Shown here: positions 1,641 to 32,481 of the stretch, piece after piece
How the letters are laid out: each line of letters starts with the position of its first letter
Numbering within the stretch: position 1 is the stretch's first letter
Virus record (IMG/VR): IMGVR_UViG_2718217860_000003
DNA length: 35,499 bases
Direction: 5' to 3' (one strand)
From: a virus
Taxonomy: Duplodnaviria > Heunggongvirae > Uroviricota > Caudoviricetes
Program-made: the position numbers and the translations under genes
The notes under the pieces: generated by a model
Told to the model about the DNA's origin: nothing
Databases searched by the model: none
What the model saw: the letters and a program-made list of their open reading frames with translations, nothing else

Positions 1641-4148
1641 TTAAGAATCAGCCTGACTCGGGATCAGTTTTTGCCAGATAACTGAAACGTATTTTGCCTG
1701 GTAACGGGCGTCATCAAGTGCATTATGGCGCTCACCTTCGAATGGAATAGCCGTTCTGGCATCGAAGTCTATGGCTTTCCCCAGCTCAACGATTGTGCGT
1801 ACATCGCGATCGTTGTAGTAACGCCACGGGCAGGGGATCCCCTGCCGTTCGTATGAACGGCGCAAAATCGTGTTGTCGAAGTTGGCTCCATTTCCCCAAA
1901 CCTGAACAAAAAATTCACCGGAGTTTTCGTCGATAAATTCTCGCAATTGTAACAGTGCATCATCTAACGGGATTTCATCGGTCATAATGGCAGATTGCGC
2001 TTCGCGTGATTGCTTAAGCCACCATTTAATGGTGTCCCGATCAATGACTCCGCCAGCAGTTTCCAGATCGATAGTCTTACTAAATTCCGGTCCCATATCT
2101 CCGGTTTGCGGATCGAAAAATATTGCACCTATTGAGATGATCGGGGCATCAGGATTTTTTCCCATGGTTTCAAGGTCGATCATTAGATGGTCACACGTCC
2201 TGCTGGTGGATGTGATTCCGTGATGACCGTTCACCTTAATTGGGTGATCTGCCGTCTCGCCAGTTTCATTATCGCTATTGTGATGCTGATTGCCGCCAGT
2301 GTTCTCCTTGTGTGGATGTTCAGCGCCTTCCATTTCCTCCGGATCATCTTCCTGAACTTCAACCTGATACTCTTCATCGAATGTTTCTTGGTATGTTGCG
2401 TCGCCCATCACCGCGCCACAATCAGGGCAGTTGCCGCCGCCGGTCTGACCGCAGGCGGTGCAGACTTTTTCCACTTCCTGTTGCGCTACTGGTTCAGGCT
2501 GTTTCGTTTCTGGCTCGTTTTGTAACGCATTTGGACTGTTTTGTTCCGCTTTTTGGTAGTTCCGTTCCGATTCATGCTGGTTCTGGTTCACAGAATCGCG
2601 GGTCTGGAGCCCCTTAACCCATTTCGGATCATTCGGGTCACTAATCCCTTCAACAAATTCACCACGTGATGCAGCAAGCAACTTATCGGCGTCAGGCTGG
2701 CTGATATTGGCTGCCTGCATAATTTTGTTTACTTCGTCAGCGGTAACTTTTATCGGCTCTGGTTGTTCTGAATCTTCAGCGGTATCTACATTTTGCGGTA
2801 AGCCCGTGTATGTGCCATTTTTTCGGGCAAAATATTCTTCTTTTGTGATTTCAGTGGCGCCAGCAGCCAGTGCCTTATCCAGACCAGAGAGTTTGTTTGC
2901 GCGACCGTATTTTTCTCCGTCCTTATCTGCGAAGAGGAAATAGAACGGCCCCTCACGCTCTACAGATGGTTCAGCTTCCGGCGCGGTTTCATTTTTTGGG
3001 ATATCAGATACCTCAGTTTCCACTGCATCAGTTTGTGTTTCTGATGACTGGAGAACATCAACAGTGCCCAGGTCTGTTTCTTCATTCTCAAACACGCCCT
3101 TTGTCGTCAGGTATTCGCAGATATATTTGTTCAGTGCTACGGGATCTTTGTGAATGTCGATCGGACGCTCACGGACAAGGCCAAAAATAGTTTGGCGGTC
3201 GTAGCGAAGGGCATCAGGCTGTTTGCGCATTGATGCCGAGATACGCTTCCAGTCTTCGCGGTCGTTGTCGATAACTTCTTTTTTTGCCCAGCGATGGATG
3301 CTGCCGTCAATGTTTCCGGCATCCACATCACCAGGCCAGAGAGCGTAGGCCAGTTCGTCATCCAGTGTTTTCCATGTCTGCTTGTATTCGCGATGAATGG
3401 CAGCAATGACCGGGCTGATTTTTCCTGTTGAATTTTCAGTGTACTGTTGATTGGCTCTGGCGCGGGCGAGATCAACAACAGACGTGTATTTTCCGGTTTC
3501 CTTGCGTTCACCTTCGCGACGTTTTTTCCAGATGCGCATCTCTGCCTGAATTTCGGGCCATTTAGCACCAGGAATACATTTATGCTTAACCCACCCAATG
3601 GCGTGCAACTTAAGCTCCGGATACATGGCGTTAACTTCTGGCATTTTCATCAACGCTTCAACGATATGTCCGTCGAATGTTGCCATGTCTTCCTGCAACA
3701 ATTCCTGTGCGCTAATAACCATATCAACGGTGATGTTTTCACATGTGTCGAACTTAACCATGACAGCGTTCTGTACTTCAGGGGCCAGCTTGTCAAAAGT
3801 GACGTTCATCGGATCGGATTCAGTCTCAACCGGGACAAAAGAAGCAGACTCCTCATCCCAGCGGTTTTCCTGCATATATTCAGCATCCCATGAATCGAGG
3901 GCAGGGCGGGGTATGCCAGGTTTATCCTCGCAGACAATAAATTTATAAGCGCAGTCCTGAGCAGCCGGATAATGTTCCAGGAATTGCCAGTGAAATTTTG
4001 CTCGAGCACGGCGTTCGTCGCCAGCTTCAATGGCTGTGGCTACAGCCACAGCGCCTTCTTCCCTTGTTGCCAGTTCGTCAGGAATAGCGGCGCAAATAAA
4101 GACTTTACTCATTTGTTTTAACCTCATGACAGATTTAAGGATGAACAA
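1641..4148 (-). CDS. Large early-region protein with a C-terminal DnaQ-like DEDDh 3'-5' exonuclease domain, a central Cys4 zinc-ribbon-like motif and an acidic low-complexity linker
   Basis: 835-aa ORF. The C-terminus carries Exo I (MIDLETMG), an Exo II-like (GNGANFDNTIL) and Exo III (ERHNALDDARYQ) motif. A Cys cluster CTACGQTGGGNCPDCG lies mid-protein. The more likely start is Met13 at 4112 (MSKVF...) with GAGG 9 nt upstream. Sits in the exo/recE position of lambdoid phages. Confidence 0.8.
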   Translation of the reverse strand: MFILKSVMRLKQMSKVFICAAIPDELATREEGAVAVATAIEAGDERRARAKFHWQFLEHYPAAQDCAYKFIVCEDKPGIPRPALDSWDAEYMQENRWDEESASFVPVETESDPMNVTFDKLAPEVQNAVMVKFDTCENITVDMVISAQELLQEDMATFDGHIVEALMKMPEVNAMYPELKLHAIGWVKHKCIPGAKWPEIQAEMRIWKKRREGERKETGKYTSVVDLARARANQQYTENSTGKISPVIAAIHREYKQTWKTLDDELAYALWPGDVDAGNIDGSIHRWAKKEVIDNDREDWKRISASMRKQPDALRYDRQTIFGLVRERPIDIHKDPVALNKYICEYLTTKGVFENEETDLGTVDVLQSSETQTDAVETEVSDIPKNETAPEAEPSVEREGPFYFLFADKDGEKYGRANKLSGLDKALAAGATEITKEEYFARKNGTYTGLPQNVDTAEDSEQPEPIKVTADEVNKIMQAANISQPDADKLLAASRGEFVEGISDPNDPKWVKGLQTRDSVNQNQHESERNYQKAEQNSPNALQNEPETKQPEPVAQQEVEKVCTACGQTGGGNCPDCGAVMGDATYQETFDEEYQVEVQEDDPEEMEGAEHPHKENTGGNQHHNSDNETGETADHPIKVNGHHGITSTSRTCDHLMIDLETMGKNPDAPIISIGAIFFDPQTGDMGPEFSKTIDLETAGGVIDRDTIKWWLKQSREAQSAIMTDEIPLDDALLQLREFIDENSGEFFVQVWGNGANFDNTILRRSYERQGIPCPWRYYNDRDVRTIVELGKAIDFDARTAIPFEGERHNALDDARYQAKYVSVIWQKLIPSQADS

Positions 4149-4204
4149 ATCCCTGCCATTGCTGGCATATAAGAATGAAACCGGATATTTATTACGGAAC
4201 TGTT

Positions 4205-4396
4205 TTAAAGACCTGCCGGGATTTCGATATTATCCTGGTGAATAACTTTATCGACCGGGTAACAGTTACCGGGAATTTTCTGTTCGGTTGCTGCAGTCAT
4301 ACACTCCTGCATTGTCCTGTGAACACTGACTGCAATATCAACTGGCTCTCCGGAAACAAGAAAAACTGTCAGAACAAGCACAAATGCTGAATTCAT
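4205..4396 (-). CDS. ydfD: YdfD-like small protein (Qin prophage lysis-inducing protein family), N-terminal hydrophobic segment
   Basis: 63-aa product MNSAFVLVLTVFLVSGEPVD... from the internal Met of the 81-aa ORF; its start overlaps the dicB stop as ATGA (translational coupling). Matches the YdfD sequence as recalled. Confidence 0.75.
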   Translation of the reverse strand: MNSAFVLVLTVFLVSGEPVDIAVSVHRTMQECMTAATEQKIPGNCYPVDKVIHQDNIEIPAGL

Positions 4397-4581
4397 TGTG
4401 CACATCCTTTTGGCATCAGACGTAAACGAGCCAGCATTGAAACAATGCATATTTTATTTAATAGCTCCCGTTCTTGTTTTCTCTTGTTAATGGCATCTTC
4501 AGTAAATACTGGGTTACTGATAGTGACACCAATTTCAAAACAACCTTCAGACGTATTAACGTTTGGTAATAACGTTTTCAT
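4393..4581 (-). CDS. dicB: Cell-division inhibitor DicB
   Basis: 62-aa product MKTLLPNVNTSEGCFEIGVTISNPVFTEDAINKRKQERELLNKICIVSMLARLRLMPKGCAQ from the internal Met of the 97-aa ORF; matches DicB as recalled; directly downstream of dicF. Confidence 0.85.
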   Translation of the reverse strand: MKTLLPNVNTSEGCFEIGVTISNPVFTEDAINKRKQERELLNKICIVSMLARLRLMPKGCAQ

Positions 4582-4750
4582 TATCGCGTCCTCAACAATG
4601 AATTTTGTGATGCAGTGCCTGGTGCCTCCAGGTGACGTTAACCAGTTAACAATTAACGCCGGATACAGAGAATCCACCCATAACACTGTTTTTGGTTTTA
4701 ACTGTTCCGCGTGCGCTCAGCCGCATTCACCACATCACAAAATTCACTTT

Positions 4751-4808
4751 AAAAAGGGCGGCAGAGCAGTCACGGAGTAAAACTGATACCGCCAAACGTC
4801 ACCAGAAA
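4751..4808 (-). ncRNA. dicF: DicF small RNA (ftsZ-targeting antisense sRNA) with its intrinsic terminator
   Basis: The minus strand reads UUUCUGGUGACGUUUGGCGGUAUCAGUUUUACUCCGUGACUGCUCUGCCGCCCUUUUU, a GGCGG...CCGCC hairpin followed by a U-run, lying between ydfC and dicB as in the Qin dicB operon. Ends are approximate. Confidence 0.85.
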
Positions 4809-5148
4809 ATTGATAACAGAGGGCGTTGCAGCGGGGTTGTCACTTAAGCGTATGGTCAACCTGACAACCCGGTGTCCTCAACGGGGAAGGAATAACCCCG
4901 CCATACTTACCGCCGCGCCATTTCGCGGGTTGCCACAACCGGAAGCGCACGGTCGACGAAAATTTAACGACAGGCTATCTATGAACCAGCTACCTCGCCG
5001 TGCGCTTTCGCGTTATGGTCTGACTTTTCAGGGAAATATCCTTTCAGTAAACTGTCAGTTCCGGATGCGCACCCGTGTCCGGCGCACGCACTCCACCTCA
5101 CCCGTGGAGAACTCCTTAATTACTAACCTTAGCTTTGTTGATTAGCTA

Positions 5149-11341: not shown

Positions 11342-12014
11342 ACATTCAAAAAAAAGCTAATCTTCTATAATAACGAAATTCAGCTGGCACAATTAAAGAT
11401 TAATTGCCACCAATTTCTTGATTTTATAATTTTATCTAAATGTTTTTGATTAATCTAGTCCTAAAAGAAACCTACTGCATAAATATTTATGCTGATGACC
11501 CACTCCCTGTTCGTTAACACATAGCAACGTTAGTAATGCATCCTAAGTGATCAATATTTTTGCTAGCTTCATCTGCTCGCTCAAAGGGAACTATAATGTT
11601 GGCTTGCGTGTGACTTGGCATGTTTAAAGAAGTGCTGGTGGTGACTGGTTGCTGTTTTCCATTTCCACAGAACAAAATCATAGAAACTATACCCAGTAGT
11701 TGTATTGAATCACTGACGAGACAGCCTCATATTTATCAGGACTGGTGTACGTCCAATACAGGAGGTTGTGGTGCTGGTTCTCAAATGTGCGCTGGCTATT
11801 GCTGCTGTAATGGCAATTTATTGTCTTGCTGTTGTTCTTATGGATCACCTTTCTGATTGATTTCATATTGGCGAGGTAACGGTAGTTAAGTAGAATTGCT
11901 GCGGGTGCTTGAGGCTATCTGCCTCGGGCATCAACACCAAAGGCAGATAGAGAAAAGCCCCAGTTAACATTACGCGTCCGGCAAGACGCTTAACATTAAT
12001 CTGAGGCCATATCT

Positions 12015-12227
12015 ATGCTCTACACACGTAGGTTAGCCTCTTACGTGCCGAAAGGCAAGGAGAAGCAGGCTATGAAGCAGCAAAAGGCGATGCTAATCGC
12101 CCTGATCGTCATCTGTTTAACCGTCATAGTGACGGCACTGGTAACGAGGAAAGACCTCTGCGAGGTACGAATCCGAACCGGTCAGACGGAGGTCGCTGTC
12201 TTCACAGCTTACGAACCTGAGGAGTAA
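12015..12227 (+). CDS. Mok-like leader ORF in frame with hokD (N-terminally extended reading frame)
   Basis: The track ORF starts 19 codons upstream of the Hok Met in the same frame. Confidence 0.35.
   Translation: MLYTRRLASYVPKGKEKQAMKQQKAMLIALIVICLTVIVTALVTRKDLCEVRIRTGQTEVAVFTAYEPEE
12072..12227 (+). CDS. hokD: Hok/Gef-family type I toxin (HokD/RelF-like)
   Basis: 51-aa product MKQQKAMLIALIVICLTVIVTALVTRKDLCEVRIRTGQTEVAVFTAYEPEE with AAGGAG RBS; single TM helix and conserved Hok C-terminus. Confidence 0.9.
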   Translation: MKQQKAMLIALIVICLTVIVTALVTRKDLCEVRIRTGQTEVAVFTAYEPEE

Positions 12228-15439: not shown

Positions 15440-15515
15440 GGTCCTTTAGCTCAGTGGTGAGAGCGAGCGACTCATAATCGCCAGGTCGCTGGTTCAAATC
15501 CAGCAAGGGCCACCA
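15440..15515 (+). tRNA. tRNA with CAU anticodon (ileX/ileZ-type tRNA-Ile2 if lysidine-modified; reads as Met by anticodon alone)
   Basis: Cloverleaf: acceptor GGTCCTT/AAGGGCC, D-arm GCTCAGTGGTGAGAGC, anticodon loop CTCATAA, T-arm GGTTCAAATCC, 3' ACCA. One A-C mismatch at the base of the anticodon stem. Confidence 0.8.
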
Positions 15516-15621: not shown

Positions 15622-15698
15622 GCGTTGTTAGCTCAGCCGGACAGAGCAATTGCCTTCTAAGCAATCGGTCACTGGTTCGAATCCAGTACAGCGCGCCA
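15622..15698 (+). tRNA. tRNA-Arg (UCU anticodon)
   Basis: Acceptor GCGTTGT/ACAGCGC, D-arm AGCTCAGCCGGACAGAGC, anticodon loop CTTCTAA, T-arm GGTTCGAATCC, 3' GCCA. Confidence 0.8.
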
Positions 15699-16162: not shown

Positions 16163-16695
16163 ATACATATCTGGATTATCACCTGTTACGGTAAAAAGTG
16201 ATTGCTTACTGTTTTTGTGAATGGCATTGCAGCAGCCGGATAATGTCAGTGCTGGCTGACGGTGTGCTGGTGGCGGGTGTGGTGGTTGTTGCTTTCCCGT
16301 TGCTGAAAAAGAAAACGCCAGACTGTTAGCCGGGTATCAGTTAGCGGGAGAAATTTTTAAATACTTCACAATTCAGGCGGTTGACTGTTCTCTGGTTTGC
16401 GGGGAGTTTGTTAAAAGAAACTGGCATGGTGAATCCCCCTGTGCGGAGGGGCAATCAGCGAGTAGGCATATGGGATAATCGCGGATTCAGGTGCTGGTAC
16501 TGAATTCACCGGGAGGCACCCGGCACCATGCACTTCAATAGATTCTCTCCACATTATGGATATTCTTTCAGAATATCCCACGCAGACTTTGTGTAAATGT
16601 TAACAAATGTGCGTTTTATTTGATCTGATTCGCTGTTTGAGCGTCCAAAACAACGGTATATATAATCCTTTACTATATGACATATGTGAGGAAAA

Positions 16696-17124
16696 ATGGG
16701 TTTTCGTAGCGCATCAATTCTTACGTTGATTATTAGTGGGATTATTATCGGGTGCACTGATGCTGTATCGACAAATTATCATGACCGTACATCATATTAC
16801 TCCGATAAAGCAATAGAGACACAGTATGTGAGTTCATCTGAACGTACTTCTGATGTTAGTGAGGATATCCGTCTGTATGCCCATCAAATCAAGAGCGCCA
16901 TCGAAAAACAGTTCGGGGATGCGAGTAAGTATTCAGGAAAAGAGTGTACACTGAGAATGCATATGGCCCCGAATGGCCTTCTACTGGAGGTTAAAAGAGA
17001 AAGTGGAGACCTCGATTTATGTCGTGAAGCGATGAATGCGATAAAGAATGCTGATATACCTGCCCCCCCTTCGCCGGAAGTATATAAAGTATTTCAAAAT
17101 GGGGTGCTGGATTTTAAACCCTGA
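16696..17124 (+). CDS. Lipoprotein with a TolA C-terminal (domain III)-like domain
   Basis: 142-aa ORF; lipobox LIISGIIIGC; C-terminal segment (YAHQIKSAIEKQFGDASKYSGKECTLRMHMAPNGLLLEVKRESGDLDLCREAMNAIKNADIPAPPSPEVYKVFQNGVLDFKP) closely parallels the E. coli TolA domain III sequence as recalled. Confidence 0.8.
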   Translation: MGFRSASILTLIISGIIIGCTDAVSTNYHDRTSYYSDKAIETQYVSSSERTSDVSEDIRLYAHQIKSAIEKQFGDASKYSGKECTLRMHMAPNGLLLEVKRESGDLDLCREAMNAIKNADIPAPPSPEVYKVFQNGVLDFKP

Positions 17125-17274: not shown

Positions 17275-17670
17275 GTGGGATTAAAGAAAATCGTTATGTT
17301 GACTTTTTGGGTCGGTTTTGTTGCGGGATGCACACCTTTACACCCTTCAGATTGCCACAAAACTACTGCTACAGGTAGTTGCAGTTCAGGACGCTGGGAT
17401 GATCAGGATGAATGGGGGGCGCAAGCGCGGGGAATCAGAGCTGCAATTAATGCCAAACTTGATGAGCCGCATAACTGGAAAGGGAAAATATGCAGGTTGC
17501 ATATGGAATTCTCTCAGGATGGCACGGCGTTAAAAATATCTACCAGTAACGGTGATAAAGCCTATTGCGAAGCGATAAAGTCCGCAGCTCATAAAGCCAA
17601 ATTTCCGGCCTTCAACAATCCGAAAGTCTACAGAGATTTTCAGAAATCTGGCTTTGACATGCGAGGTTAG
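17275..17670 (+). CDS. Second, divergent lipoprotein with a TolA domain III-like C-terminus (paralogue of the upstream gene)
   Basis: 131-aa ORF; lipobox VGFVAGC; shares KxCxLHM...G..L...........C.A...A.......P....VY..FQ spacing with the upstream protein and TolA-III. Confidence 0.7.
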   Translation: MGLKKIVMLTFWVGFVAGCTPLHPSDCHKTTATGSCSSGRWDDQDEWGAQARGIRAAINAKLDEPHNWKGKICRLHMEFSQDGTALKISTSNGDKAYCEAIKSAAHKAKFPAFNNPKVYRDFQKSGFDMRG

Positions 17671-17921
17671 CTCTTCAATTACTATATCTCATTCATAGCA
17701 AACTGACAGATTTGATGATGTTCTATATACGAAACCTGTGATGTCAAGTCTGAGCTAATACAAATAAACATAATATCAGAGAAATACATTTTATTAGCTC
17801 GCTACGGCGAGCTTTTTATATTGCATCGTCTCCAGCATATATATCAATTAAGGCTCTGATTGATGTGTCTGGAAGCCTACACATAATAACTATGCCATCC
17901 GTTCCGTGCGGAGGTGAGGCT

Positions 17922-18137
17922 ATGAAATCCATGGACAAAATTTCAACAGGCATTGCCTACGGCACCTCCGCAGGCAGTGCTGGCTACTGGTTTTTACAGC
18001 TGCTCGATAAAGTCACGCCCTCACAGTGGGCAGCAATAGGTGTGCTGGGTAGCCTGGTATTTGGCCTGCTGACGTACCTGACAAACCTTTATTTCAAGAT
18101 TAAAGAAGACAAGCGTAAGGCTGCACGGGGAGAGTAA
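17922..18137 (+). CDS. Holin (S21/EssD-type pinholin) with dual-start motif
   Basis: Product [71 protein letters not shown], with two Met codons (MKSM) for antiholin/holin; two TM segments. Confidence 0.85.
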
Positions 18138-18141
18138 TTCA

Positions 18142-18486
18142 ATGACTCAAAAATATGAACTGATTGTGAAAGGGATCCGCAATTTTGAGAATAAAGTTAC
18201 GGTAACTTTAGCGTTACGGGACAAAGAACGCTTTGACGGTGAAATTTTTGACCTGGACATCTCGCTGGACCGTGTTGAAGGTGCCGCGCTGGAGTTTTAT
18301 GAGGCAGCAGCCAGAAGGAGCATCAGACAGGTCTTCCTGGATGTTGCTGCCGGGTTATGTGAAGGGGATGAGCTGTCGCCGGAAAAGCGCCCCATAATTT
18401 TAGAGGCGCAGAATGTGTGGATAACCTACAAAGGAAAGCTACCGGGAAGAATTACTGGTTCTCTGAAGACTCCGCCGAAATGGTAA
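18142..18486 (+). CDS. Hypothetical protein inserted between holin and endolysin
   Basis: 114-aa ORF starting 5 bp after the holin stop. Confidence 0.55.
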   Translation: MTQKYELIVKGIRNFENKVTVTLALRDKERFDGEIFDLDISLDRVEGAALEFYEAAARRSIRQVFLDVAAGLCEGDELSPEKRPIILEAQNVWITYKGKLPGRITGSLKTPPKW

Positions 18487-18724
18487 TTTCACCAGCATAT
18501 TTTTCTTCCAGTAATACCGCCAGCCACTTGAAAGAATTTTGTTGTTGCTGGGACCATTTGGGGTTGAGTGATTCAAGCTGGAGCGATGCCAGTGTTGGTT
18601 GCATTTGTTCCTTGGGAATTGAGAATGCCAGATATGAAAATGCGACAGTAAGGGCATTTACATCATCCCGAAGCTTGGAAATGCAGTCGAGCAACTCCTG
18701 TAGAGAAATGGTGCTATTGTCCAT
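18452..18724 (-). CDS. Hypothetical small protein on the opposite strand within the lysis cassette
   Basis: 90-aa product from ATG 18724 (MDNSTISLQELLD...) with AGAGAGGA RBS 6 nt upstream; convergent with the upstream plus-strand gene. Confidence 0.45.
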   Translation of the reverse strand: MDNSTISLQELLDCISKLRDDVNALTVAFSYLAFSIPKEQMQPTLASLQLESLNPKWSQQQQNSFKWLAVLLEEKYAGEITISAESSENQ

Positions 18725-18829
18725 AAACAATCCTCTCTATTGTATTTAACTATTCCTTGCCTGATTCAACAGGCCGGGACAGATAAACATATCCAGGGTT
18801 CAGAAACCGATAAATCCTGATAAATATCC

Positions 18830-19372
18830 ATGAACGTAAAAATCAGATACGGCCTGTCGGCTGCCGTTCTGGCACTGATTGCCGTCCGTGCGCCTGCGCC
18901 TGATATTCTCGACCAGTTTCTGAATGAAAAAGAAGGTAACCACACAACGGCATACCGCGATGGTTCCGGCATCTGGACCATCTGTCGGGGTGCCACGGTG
19001 GTGGATGGAAAACCCGTTTTTCCCGGTATGAAACTGTCGAAGGAAAAATGCGACCAGGTTAACGCCATTGAACGGGATAAGGCGCTGGCATGGGTGGAGC
19101 GCAATATTAAAGTGCCACTGACCGAACCACAGAAAGCGGGTATAGCGTCATTTTGTCCCTATAACATTGGCCCCGGTAAGTGTTTCCCGTCGACGTTTTA
19201 TAAGCGGCTGAATGCCGATGATCGTAAGGGGGCATGCGAGGCGATTCGCTGGTGGATAAAAGATGGTGGGCGTGATTGCCGCCTGACAAAAGGGCAGAAG
19301 AATGGCTGTTATGGGCAGGTCGAGCGGCGCGATCAGGAAAGCGCACTGGCGTGCTGGGGGCTGGAGCAATGA
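18830..19372 (+). CDS. Endolysin (RrrD-like lysozyme with N-terminal hydrophobic signal/SAR-like segment)
   Basis: 180-aa ORF with catalytic E-x8-D-x5-T (EGNHTTAYRDGSGIWT) and hydrophobic N-terminus (YGLSAAVLALIAV). Confidence 0.85.
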   Translation: MNVKIRYGLSAAVLALIAVRAPAPDILDQFLNEKEGNHTTAYRDGSGIWTICRGATVVDGKPVFPGMKLSKEKCDQVNAIERDKALAWVERNIKVPLTEPQKAGIASFCPYNIGPGKCFPSTFYKRLNADDRKGACEAIRWWIKDGGRDCRLTKGQKNGCYGQVERRDQESALACWGLEQ

Positions 19373-19905
19373 AAATTAATCCGGATCTTATAGGCGTTGT
19401 CGTTATTGCTGGCCTTTCGGTCGCTCTCGTCAAGAGTTGCTCTCACGCCAGTAATCTTCAGAGCGATAACGACGTTCTGCGAAGTGACAACTCTATGCTG
19501 GGGCAGGTAATCGCCACCCAGGCATTCAACTTCAATCGATTCAATCAGGTTGCAGAACATGCCAACAGTCTTAACTCCCTGATCGACACCAGCACCGAAA
19601 AAACCGTAATCGAATACCGGGAGATTCTCCGCCGTGAAAAAACCTGTGATCTGCCTGTTCCTGCTGATATCGCTGGTGGGTTGCTCGAATACACGTACCG
19701 TTTACGTGCCAGCGCCATGCACACCGATACCGGCAGACCTAATGAAGCCTATGATCGTACCGCTACCACCAGCTCAATGACCTACTGCCAAGCTGTCTTG
19801 TGGATTAAGCCGCTACTGGCGTTGATAGAAAAAGGAAATAATAATTTTTCGAGTATTCGTGAAATTGATGAGTTGCGTTACAGACCATCTGAGCATGGCC
19901 AGTAA
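19369..19905 (+). CDS. Rz-like inner-membrane spanin subunit (i-spanin)
   Basis: Start ATG overlaps the endolysin stop (ATGA); N-terminal TM helix (LIGVVVIAGLSVALV) followed by a charged periplasmic domain. Confidence 0.75.
   Translation: MKINPDLIGVVVIAGLSVALVKSCSHASNLQSDNDVLRSDNSMLGQVIATQAFNFNRFNQVAEHANSLNSLIDTSTEKTVIEYREILRREKTCDLPVPADIAGGLLEYTYRLRASAMHTDTGRPNEAYDRTATTSSMTYCQAVLWIKPLLALIEKGNNNFSSIREIDELRYRPSEHGQ
19634..19780 (+). CDS. Rz1-like outer-membrane lipoprotein spanin subunit (o-spanin), embedded in the +1 frame of Rz
   Basis: Not in the ORF track. Manual translation from GTG 19634: MKKPVICLFLLISLVGCSNTRTVYVPAPCTPIPADLMKPMIVPLPPAQ*, with a lipobox (LVGC) and proline-rich tail. 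Confidence 0.65.
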   Translation: MKKPVICLFLLISLVGCSNTRTVYVPAPCTPIPADLMKPMIVPLPPAQ

Positions 19906-20073: not shown

Positions 20074-20766
20074 TCAAATCTTATCTAACTCATTATAGGC
20101 TTCGATAATAAAAATTCTGATTTTAATAAGGCATGATTCAATGAAAGGAATTACTTCATGGTCATTCCCATGGAATCTTATTTTTTTCTCTTCGGTAATG
20201 ACTATGTTTAAAGGTACACCATTACCACTTCTTTGTAATTTCCCATTTTCGAAAGTAAAGTCTTCTAATTTTTTGCCATTGATGTGGTTGTTTTTAAAGA
20301 GAATTTTTGCTGAGCTTCCTGCTGTGATTAAACCAAAACCATCTACGCTCACACTTAGGTCTTTAACAGAACTCTCTTCTCTTAAGGGGATTGGTTGTCT
20401 GTGCTTTACTTCATTAGTGAGATTACACATCATTTCCAACCAAGATTCGCCAGTGTGATAATCCTGTATAGAAGTAAAAATTTTATATAATGGAGAAGAT
20501 GATGGTGGGTTTATTTTTAGCGTCTTTGAGAAAAATTTATCAATAAACTCTTTTTTTCCGTAAGGGAAATATATTTTGGGGCGCTCATCATTACTGCGTG
20601 GAGAAATATATTTATCATAGGTATCATTAGCGAGATACTCTAAGGAACTTCGTAAGTTTTCCAAAATAGCTTTGACTTTTACAGGCTTGATATGCTGTGT
20701 CTGTCTCATTATGCCAAGACTTTCTTCAACTTCTTGCAATAAGTCCAACGAGCCTTCTCTAGACAT
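20074..20766 (-). CDS. Hypothetical protein in an AT-rich moron between the lysis cassette and terminase
   Basis: 230-aa ORF in a visibly AT-rich segment, opposite strand to the flanking late genes; no family recognised. Confidence 0.65.
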   Translation of the reverse strand: MSREGSLDLLQEVEESLGIMRQTQHIKPVKVKAILENLRSSLEYLANDTYDKYISPRSNDERPKIYFPYGKKEFIDKFFSKTLKINPPSSSPLYKIFTSIQDYHTGESWLEMMCNLTNEVKHRQPIPLREESSVKDLSVSVDGFGLITAGSSAKILFKNNHINGKKLEDFTFENGKLQRSGNGVPLNIVITEEKKIRFHGNDHEVIPFIESCLIKIRIFIIEAYNELDKI

Positions 20767-31900: not shown

Positions 31901-32481
31901 TGGCATTCAGAATGAGTGAACAACCACGGACCATAAAAATTTATAATCTGCTGGCCGGAACTAATGAATTTATTGGTGAAGGTGACGCATATATTCCGCC
32001 TCATACAGGTCTGCCAGCAAACAGTACCGATATTGCACCGCCAGATATTCCTGCTGGCTTTGTGGCTGTTTTCAACAGTGATGAGGCATCGTGGCATCTC
32101 GTTGAAGATCATCGGGGAAAAACCGTCTATGACGTGGCTTCCGGCGACGCGTTATTTATTTCTGAACTTGGCTCGTTACCGGAAAATGTCACCTGGTTAT
32201 CGCCGGAAGGGGAATATCAGAAGTGGAACGGCACAGCCTGGGTGAAGGATACGGAAGCAGAAAAACTGTTCCGGATCCGGGAGGCGGAAGAAACAAAAAA
32301 CAACCTGATGCAGGTAGCCAGTGAGCATATTGCGCCGCTTCAGGATGCTGCAGATCTGGAAATTGCAACGGAGGAAGAAATCTCGTTGCTGGAAGCCTGG
32401 AAGAAGTATCGGGTGTTGCTGAACCGTGTTAATACAACAACTGCACCGGATATTGAATGGCCAGTAGCACCTATAGGGTAA
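31900..32481 (+). CDS. tfa: Tail fibre assembly protein Tfa
   Basis: 193-aa ORF; start overlaps the stf stop (TAATG); conserved Tfa C-terminus ...[31 protein letters not shown]. Confidence 0.9.

Follow-up and report, generated by a model that had tools for sequence, protein, structure and literature searches.

The ydfR gene and a convergent moron-like gene between holin and endolysin of a Qin-like Escherichia coli prophage

The interval between the holin and endolysin genes of this Qin-like lambdoid prophage of E. coli is probably occupied by two accessory genes that are unrelated to each other, differ in their histories and do not appear to be lysis effectors; this is, overall, the best explanation of the locus that we found. 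By its sequence, the first of them, ORF1, is the YdfR (DUF1327) gene; about two-thirds of E. coli genomes, and the Qin prophage of K-12, have ydfR as the normal neighbour of the S21-type holin. The second, ORF2, lies on the opposite strand in a variable segment of about 300 bp and belongs to a family that so far has no Pfam, NCBIfam, structural or literature description.

The window, meaning the whole stretch of 35,499 nucleotides that was analysed, is 100% identical over bases 17800-19400 to a prophage in strain CFSAN064035 that adjoins rspB and bears dicB and ydfD. Its gene order is S21-type holin, 114-aa ORF1 on the plus strand, convergent 90-aa ORF2 on the minus strand and lysozyme. The initial annotation had reported two ORFs between holin and endolysin, and both are where it placed them, with a spacer of 4 nt between holin and ORF1; a point it did not include is that the convergent ORF1 and ORF2 overlap by 35 bp at their 3' ends (18452-18486). 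The features of the locus are as follows.

17922-18137, plus strand: class II (S21-type) holin, 71 aa (PF04971, E 8.7e-36; phrog_9876/phrog_20 holin)
18142-18486, plus strand: ORF1, a ydfR allele, 114 aa, DUF1327 (PF07041, E 7.6e-43; phrog_406, E 2.6e-67)
18391-18477, plus strand: ydfR codons 84-112, IILEAQNVWITYKGKLPGRITGSLKTPP (from the allele alignment, the allele sequences and the DNA breakpoints against loci L016 and L019)
18381-18409, minus strand: weak candidate intrinsic terminator for ORF2 (folding -13 kcal/mol, z -1.76)
18452-18724, minus strand: ORF2, 90 aa, phrog_2411 (E 2.2e-59, full length)
18478-18775, no strand: variable cassette of about 300 bp with ORF2 (pairwise DNA alignments; G+C 0.42)
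18725-18829, minus strand: divergent intergenic region between ORF2 and endolysin (sequence and conservation across 8 loci)
18830-19372, plus strand: lysozyme-type endolysin, 180 aa (PF00959, E 1e-23; phrog_7)
19369-19905, plus strand: Rz-like spanin, 178 aa (phrog_214, E 2e-54; weak PF23793 match)
19634-19780, plus strand: embedded Rz1-like lipoprotein ORF inside the Rz-like spanin (phrog_456, E 1.3e-6)

Both ORF1 and ORF2 are more than chance reading frames, given their respective matches to DUF1327 and phrog_2411, an ORF2 frame that has stayed open under a low dN/dS (below), and the calls made by PGAP on an identical E. coli chromosome, where ORF1 is a 'YdfR family protein' (WP_000192451.1) and ORF2 a 'hypothetical protein'. 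No Rfam family was found within 17900-19400.

The holin, which PGAP names essD, matches PF04971 and is thereby a class II holin of the P21 S family. It begins with MKSM, and thus with two possible start codons, ends with a TAA stop at 18135-18137 and reaches a maximum Kyte-Doolittle (KD) hydropathy over 19 residues of 1.72. The endolysin starts with an ATG at 18830, and its hydrophobic N-terminus (maximum KD 1.65 at residue 9) resembles, at the level of sequence, a signal-arrest-release (SAR) segment. Downstream of the lysozyme lies an Rz/Rz1-type spanin pair, recognised by phrog_214 and the embedded phrog_456.

The assignment of ORF1 rests on a match to Pfam DUF1327 (PF07041) that covers residues 1-112 and scores 145.1 bits against a cut-off of 25. 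Its ATG stands at 18142, and a Shine-Dalgarno sequence, GGGGAGAG, lies 8-15 nt upstream, within the last codons of the holin gene. With a start 4 nt past the holin stop behind this Shine-Dalgarno, ydfR probably shares a transcript with the holin, and its translation may be coupled to that of the holin. The window, K-12 Qin, phage mEp460 and many other loci all have ydfR in a lambdoid late operon with a class II holin before it and a lysozyme after it. Its frequency, and that of ORF2, was estimated by megablast among 5,426 complete E. coli genomes, and the counts below are megablast-level estimates.

Holin (17922-18137): 7,278 places; any match in 4,387 genomes; at least 80% of the query in one place in 3,965 genomes
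ydfR core (18142-18390): 7,977 places; any match in 4,259 genomes; at least 80% in one place in 3,528 genomes
ORF2 segment (18487-18829): 2,534 places; any match in 1,862 genomes; at least 80% in one place in 1,052 genomes
Segment of an unrelated ORF, ORF86 (L016:3540-3800; see below): 335 places; any match in 314 genomes; at least 80% in one place in 311 genomes

As the ydfR core occurs in about as many places as the holin (7,977 versus 7,278), the order holin-ydfR-lysozyme is the usual layout and not the outcome of an insertion. From the same counts, the initial annotation's premise that in such cassettes the endolysin normally comes straight after the holin is true of only a minority of cassettes: it describes K-12 DLP12 (essD-rrrD) but not K-12 Qin (essQ-ydfR-rrrQ), and ydfR after the holin is the rule. 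Relative to the minimal DLP12 layout, in which the holin leads directly to the lysozyme, the window does carry two extra genes. That they were inserted is borne out for the ORF2 segment, which is present or absent among near-identical cassettes, but not for ydfR, which is a normal neighbour and no unusual insertion. ORF2 itself is found in 1,052 of the 5,426 complete genomes (~19%, about a fifth). With ydfR standard in such cassettes and ORF2 this frequent, the arrangement in the window is common rather than unusual; it is already annotated in thousands of genomes, and ydfR is a named gene.

Comparison with known cassettes shows where the window agrees with them and where it departs. Qin of K-12 (essQ-ydfR-rrrQ-rzpQ/rzoQ) likewise has a class II holin, ydfR, a lysozyme and spanins, and its ydfR starts 5 bp after the last base of the holin gene. 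It differs in that its YdfR has 103 aa with another tail past about residue 74, overlaps rrrQ by 4 bp and is not accompanied by ORF2, whereas ydfR in the window has the conserved 84-112 segment and then the ORF2 cassette. The order holin-YdfR-lysozyme is also that of phage mEp460. DLP12 (essD-rrrD-rzpD) resembles the window in its PF04971 holin, its lysozyme-family endolysin with a hydrophobic N-terminus and its embedded spanins, but there the holin abuts the lysozyme and neither ydfR nor ORF2 is present. In the S21-R21-Rz/Rz1 cassette of phage 21, which encodes a pinholin and a SAR-endolysin, the holin also abuts the lysozyme, and ydfR and ORF2 are likewise missing.

In the AF2 model of the window YdfR (mean pLDDT 57.6), residues 5-73 form three beta strands and one helix, and a tail of low confidence comes after them; the structural matches of this model are within the noise expected for a model of pLDDT 58. 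The maximum KD hydropathy over 19 residues is 0.69, and a transmembrane segment is absent. A literature search by WP accession numbers returned nothing, and the functional data that we found on YdfR come from a single 2026 paper in RNA Biology (PMC13232886). There, K-12 YdfR, or its residues 1-72 alone, binds the N-terminal (catalytic) half of RNase E, Rne 1-597, in a bacterial two-hybrid assay (BACTH); Rne 1-598 co-purifies with Strep-YdfR, as does DNase-resistant nucleic acid; and over-production of K-12 YdfR changes few transcripts and barely alters the transcriptome (PMC13232886). The same paper describes K-12 ydfR as co-transcribed with three neighbouring genes and refers to a screen for envelope integrity that had K-12 ydfR among its hits (PMC13232886). 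Residues 1-74 of the window YdfR are 82% identical to K-12 YdfR, a stretch that spans the binding residues 1-72, so RNase E binding, which is reported for the K-12 allele only, may by homology plausibly be transferred to the 114-aa allele.

We propose that ydfR is a regular late-operon member of S21-holin lambdoid prophages, where it would share a transcript with the holin, lysozyme and spanin genes, its translation probably relying on the Shine-Dalgarno within the last holin codons. YdfR would be a soluble cytoplasmic protein; in its K-12 orthologue, the N-terminal beta3-alpha domain binds the catalytic half of RNase E, and it also co-purifies RNA. Late in the lytic cycle, the most likely role of YdfR would be to modulate host RNase E or the decay of RNA, not to attack membrane or cell wall. 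Phage-encoded modulators of RNase E include Srd of T4, gp0.7 of T7 and Dip of phiKZ. As a putative modulator, YdfR has no sequence homology to these proteins and is encoded within a lysis cassette, from which it would be expressed late. Should YdfR indeed modulate RNase E late in infection, temperate phages would have in it a counterpart to these virulent-phage modulators, and the conservation of a cytoplasmic protein inside a lysis operon would be explained.

The 3' end of ydfR is where its alleles part. Among the 114-, 116-, 176- and 183-aa alleles, residues 84-112 are nearly invariant and divergence sets in immediately past Pro112. The window allele continues with KW and a stop, and then comes ORF2; the 116-aa allele continues with ESQP and a stop, with about 24 bp in place of the ORF2 cassette at locus L019; and the 176- and 183-aa alleles continue with a helical C-terminal domain of about 65-70 aa. 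At locus L016, about 520 bp take the place of the ORF2 cassette and comprise this C-terminal domain of the 176/183-aa ydfR together with an unrelated convergent 86-aa ORF (ORF86, phrog_2572), which overlaps the end of the long ydfR by 52 bp and is found next to long ydfR alleles in, for example, CFT073, S88 and APEC O1. Two alleles diverge earlier, that of K-12 (103 aa) past about residue 74 and that of mEp460 (104 aa) past about residue 84.

Against L016 and L019, the breakpoints of the ORF2 cassette fall at ~18477 and ~18775-18790; against mEp460, they fall at ~18415 and ~18810. The G+C content of the cassette is 0.42, compared with 0.495 for the holin and 0.54 for the endolysin (0.49-0.54 across holin, ydfR core and endolysin), a modest difference. 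The last 11 codons of ORF2 are antisense to the conserved ydfR codons 104-114, and residues 80-90 of its product are predicted to be disordered, which is consistent with an insertion or replacement event in which the ends of both genes became fused. ORF2 and the 114-aa ydfR allele overlap by 32-35 bp at six further loci (L002, L003, L005, L009, L012 and L015), as they do in the identical copy L001.

On the minus strand, ORF2 runs from an ATG at 18724 to a stop at 18452-18454, and an upstream in-frame TTG would give 92 aa. The match to phrog_2411 (E 2.2e-59) covers positions 1-90 of 90. The frame is open in all eight copies compared, which are 76-98% identical, with a dN/dS of 0.32. The antisense frame that shares third positions has a dN/dS of 0.27 and is broken by stops in six of the eight; since dN/dS alone cannot discriminate between the two, the coding strand was chosen on these stops. 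By these comparisons, ORF2 is a real protein-coding gene and selection acts on its protein.

A word-indexed search gave 63 ORF2 protein clusters, almost all from Escherichia or Shigella and mostly of exactly 90 aa; some database copies are frameshifted, yielding 94-aa variants and altered C-termini. An exhaustive profile search reached further, to relatives at 28-36% identity that carry the motifs ELL..I..LR..VN.L..AFSYLAFS and FES.N. In several Serratia species and one Enterobacterales MAG, the homologue (X) is chromosomal, in the order pyrC-dinI-X-bssS-solA with rne just upstream, and the Serratia homologues have no ydfR neighbour. Another homologue lies in the late region of a lambdoid prophage, again on the strand opposite to the late genes. 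The AF2 model of ORF2 (pLDDT 78) has helices at residues 8-34, 38-52 and 59-77 and a disordered tail at 80-90; the protein is acidic, with a maximum KD hydropathy of 0.88 over 19 residues, and is predicted to be a soluble, cytoplasmic three-helix protein. Both YdfR (0.69) and ORF2 (0.88) lack the transmembrane or anchoring segment expected of an antiholin or a membrane-acting lysis regulator.

No match to a described family, structure or defence system pointed to a function for ORF2. Pfam, NCBIfam and PADLOC gave no match for ORF2, ORF86 or the distant ORF2 homologues; in PADLOC-DB, no profile reached E <=1 with ORF2, ORF86 or any YdfR allele. Among PDB sequences, a search with an ORF2 family profile found nothing below E 0.6, and Foldseek of the ORF2 model against PDB and BFVD gave nothing usable. 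The initial annotation had allowed that the two genes might prove, in related phages, to be conserved and characterised lysis accessory genes; conserved they are, but as lysis genes they are uncharacterised.

Morons are independently transcribed add-on genes in phage genomes, of which bor and lom of lambda are examples. ORF2 is like the lambdoid morons in being a small extra gene in or beside the late region, pointing against late transcription, with a base composition unlike that of its neighbours, and in being present or absent, with sharp boundaries, between otherwise matching cassettes. With 1,052 of 5,426 genomes carrying it and otherwise matching cassettes lacking it, it behaves like a moron. 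Both the phage record Chlobot and vB_EcoS-783R2 have it, and isolated or induced phage records also include cassettes without it. In phiSTEC1575-Stx2k, ORF2 occurs with ydfR and the holin, but the lysis module that follows is a different one and comprises two holins and an M15 peptidase. Elsewhere, ORF2 persists where the N-terminal half of ydfR has been replaced and a stop breaks the ydfR remnant. In classic morons a promoter and a terminator can be recognised, and the proteins Bor and Lom belong to the envelope; unlike them, ORF2 shows no convincing promoter or terminator, is predicted to be cytoplasmic and is inserted in the coding 3' end of another gene. In DLP12, borD adjoins rzpD.

A Shine-Dalgarno sequence, AGAGAGGA, lies at 18738-18731, 7 nt before the ORF2 ATG, and a promoter of its own would be placed in the 18725-18829 region. 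A consensus scan found no minus-strand sigma-70 promoter upstream of ORF2, and a relaxed scan of the 175 bp upstream found no sigma-70 match of at least 8/12. A conserved TACAAT (18744-18739) stands 14 nt before the ATG, for which the best -35 candidate, TTGAAT (18769-18764), is at a non-standard 19-nt spacing. The combination TTTATC-17 nt-TATGTT (18814-18786), in a conserved block, was rejected as a promoter with a consensus match of only 7/12. The candidate terminator is a hairpin at 18409-18387, inside ydfR codons 81-90, whose 7-bp stem encloses a 9-nt loop and is followed by a UUUUCC tail. Its folding energy of -13 kcal/mol (z -1.76) is only slightly better than that of shuffled sequence, the terminator scan left it uncalled, and homologues show single-sided disruptions and no compensatory changes. 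With the promoter scans empty and the terminator candidate weak and lacking covariation, it is orientation alone that points to independent transcription of ORF2.

For the origin of ORF2, we propose that a moron-like cassette of about 300 bp took the place of all that had followed codon 112 in a longer ydfR allele. The cassette would have given ydfR its new stop after KW, and ORF2 would have taken its last codons and stop from the antisense strand of ydfR. As it points against late transcription, ORF2 would most likely be transcribed independently, for instance in the lysogen, and be over-run by Q-antiterminated late transcription upon induction; we infer both this independence and the timing of its expression. 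The protein would then act on some host or phage partner.

Other readings of the interval assign ORF2, or both genes, a different part. According to one that the initial annotation had put forward, the convergent ORF2 unit hinders late transcription into the endolysin, by antisense or collision, or both proteins tune the timing of lysis. The two genes are indeed convergent with a 35-bp 3' overlap, the unrelated ORF86 is convergent at the same place in other alleles, such that convergence itself could be selected, and K-12 ydfR was a hit in the envelope-integrity screen cited by PMC13232886. We nevertheless regard this reading as quite unlikely. ORF2 is transcribed away from the endolysin, which makes ydfR and the holin the genes to which its RNA would be antisense; neither the consensus nor the relaxed scan, with no sigma-70 match of at least 8/12 in the 175 bp upstream, yielded a convincing promoter; and selection acts on the ORF2 protein, which has homologues outside prophages. 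A role of either protein in lysis timing is further opposed by the absence of transmembrane or signal segments from both, by the phage-record cassettes without ORF2, by K-12 DLP12 with neither gene and by the ydfR-ORF2 pair in front of the different lysis module of phiSTEC1575-Stx2k. Unlikely too, in our judgement, is that ORF2 and its positional analogue ORF86 are morons expressed in the lysogen for defence or superinfection exclusion. The orientation of ORF2 against the late operon, its polymorphic presence and its lower G+C would suit such a gene, and candidate exclusion genes lie nearby, namely two ORFs with TolA C-terminal domains and an opposite-strand ORF at 20074-20766 with a G+C of 0.34. 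Against this stand the lack of a PADLOC hit, a protein that is small, soluble and acidic without an enzymatic motif, and Serratia homologues that sit in the conserved pyrC-dinI-X-bssS-solA chromosomal neighbourhood and not in defence islands.

YdfR and ORF2 might instead form a functional pair, such as a regulator and its target or a toxin-antitoxin-like couple, in keeping with the joint occurrence and 32-35 bp overlap of ORF2 and the 114-aa ydfR at the six further loci and L001, and with their staying together when the downstream lysin differs. Such linkage, however, follows trivially from insertion of ORF2 into the ydfR 3' end. Moreover, most ydfR copies are without ORF2 (3,528 genomes with the ydfR core versus 1,052 with ORF2), ORF2 is kept where the N-terminal domain of ydfR has been replaced and the remnant is stop-interrupted, and ydfR is not a neighbour of the Serratia homologues, all of which makes a pair very unlikely. 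That ORF2 is a chance or decaying frame without function we hold to be highly improbable: the empty promoter scans, the frameshifted 94-aa database variants and the lack of functional annotation anywhere in the family would agree with decay, but the frame is intact in all eight diverged loci at a dN/dS of 0.32, most clusters are full-length at 90 aa, and homologues at 28-36% identity keep the motifs across genera. Two unrelated accessory genes, neither apparently a lysis effector, remain our preferred account.

These results do not overturn the current understanding of lysis; their use lies in a corrected premise about cassette layout, in defined boundaries of the ORF2 cassette and in the link from ORF2 to chromosomal homologues. 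For annotation, holin-ydfR-lysozyme can be treated as a standard layout of E. coli prophage lysis cassettes and ORF2 as a widespread uncharacterised small gene. Having homologues on enterobacterial chromosomes, ORF2 is a reasonable target for a small functional study.

ORF86 invites a further comparison, as it resembles ORF2 in position and orientation, in its similar size, in its 3' overlap with ydfR and in an MD start. We claim no homology between the two: BLASTP gave no hit, hhalign aligned 23 residues at a probability of 1.3% and E 0.04, and ORF86 was absent from the hits of the exhaustive ORF2 profile search. The presence of two unrelated convergent ORFs at the same junction in different ydfR alleles keeps a regulatory reading alive at low probability, in which the codon-112 junction is a dedicated docking site for alternative convergent small genes that are expressed in the lysogen and safeguard or regulate the late operon. 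Their means could be an RNA that is antisense to ydfR and the holin or, alternatively, a protein working with the RNase E-binding YdfR. If so, the Serratia homologue beside dinI and bssS would point to a family of stress-linked small regulators.

The lysis cassette also accepts insertions other than ORF2, the convergent 90-aa gene between ydfR and the lysozyme gene, as seen in related loci and in one database match:

L013 (related locus, E. albertii), 3701-4929: insertion sequence (transposase genes) separating holin from ydfR
H24 (database match, NZ_CP010344.1, strain ECC-1470): ISEc52 inside the cassette
L006 (related locus), 1589-2123: ParE/ParD pair just downstream of lysozyme, an arrangement seen in L006-L008

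In related loci L016 (3479-3739) and L022 (3500-3760), on the minus strand of each, an 86-aa convergent ORF (phrog_2572) lies beside the 176- and 183-aa ydfR alleles. It matches ORF2 in position, shows no demonstrable homology to it and overlaps these longer ydfR alleles by 52 bp. It is present in 311 of 5,426 E. coli genomes, CFT073, S88 and APEC O1 among these.

Within YdfR itself, alignment of the alleles shows that residues 84-112 (18391-18477) are conserved more strictly than the N-terminal domain, the part for which RNase E binding has been reported (PMC13232886). In L006 the N-terminal domain has been replaced, yet the 84-112 segment is kept, with a stop upstream of it. Because every allele that bears the segment (114, 116, 176 and 183 aa) diverges directly after Pro112, as seen in the alignment and in the allele sequences, the pattern suggests either a hotspot for recombination or a functional motif that has gone unrecognised.

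Homologues of the ORF2 family also occur on chromosomes, in Serratia and in an Enterobacterales metagenome-assembled genome (L027 3956-4237 and L032 3962-4258), where they are flanked by dinI and bssS; the segment directly upstream holds pyrC and the rne 3' end.

Three further ORFs lie on either side of the cassette in the window:

16696-17124, plus strand: TolA C-terminal-domain ORF just upstream of holin (PF06519, E 2e-23)
17275-17670, plus strand: TolA C-terminal-domain ORF just upstream of holin (PF06519, E 4e-14)
20074-20766, minus strand: 230-aa ORF running against the late genes, located between those for spanin and terminase

The last has a G+C content of 0.34, gave no match in a Pfam search and is immediately preceded by two promoter-like sites from a promoter scan (20848 and 20837); it looks like another moron. 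The upstream pair, both labelled TolA-like by PGAP and both with N-termini of lipoprotein-like appearance, may act as decoys against Tol-dependent colicins or phages.

Rfam matches above the gathering score place several RNA genes in the window:

4756-4807, minus strand: DicF
11903-12077, plus strand: sok antitoxin RNA, adjoining hokD
15440-15512 and 15622-15695, plus strand: two tRNAs, following the antiterminator gene
16395-16585, plus strand: STnc100 sRNA, ~1.3 kb upstream of holin
32243-32441, plus strand: IS009 RNA, within the tail region
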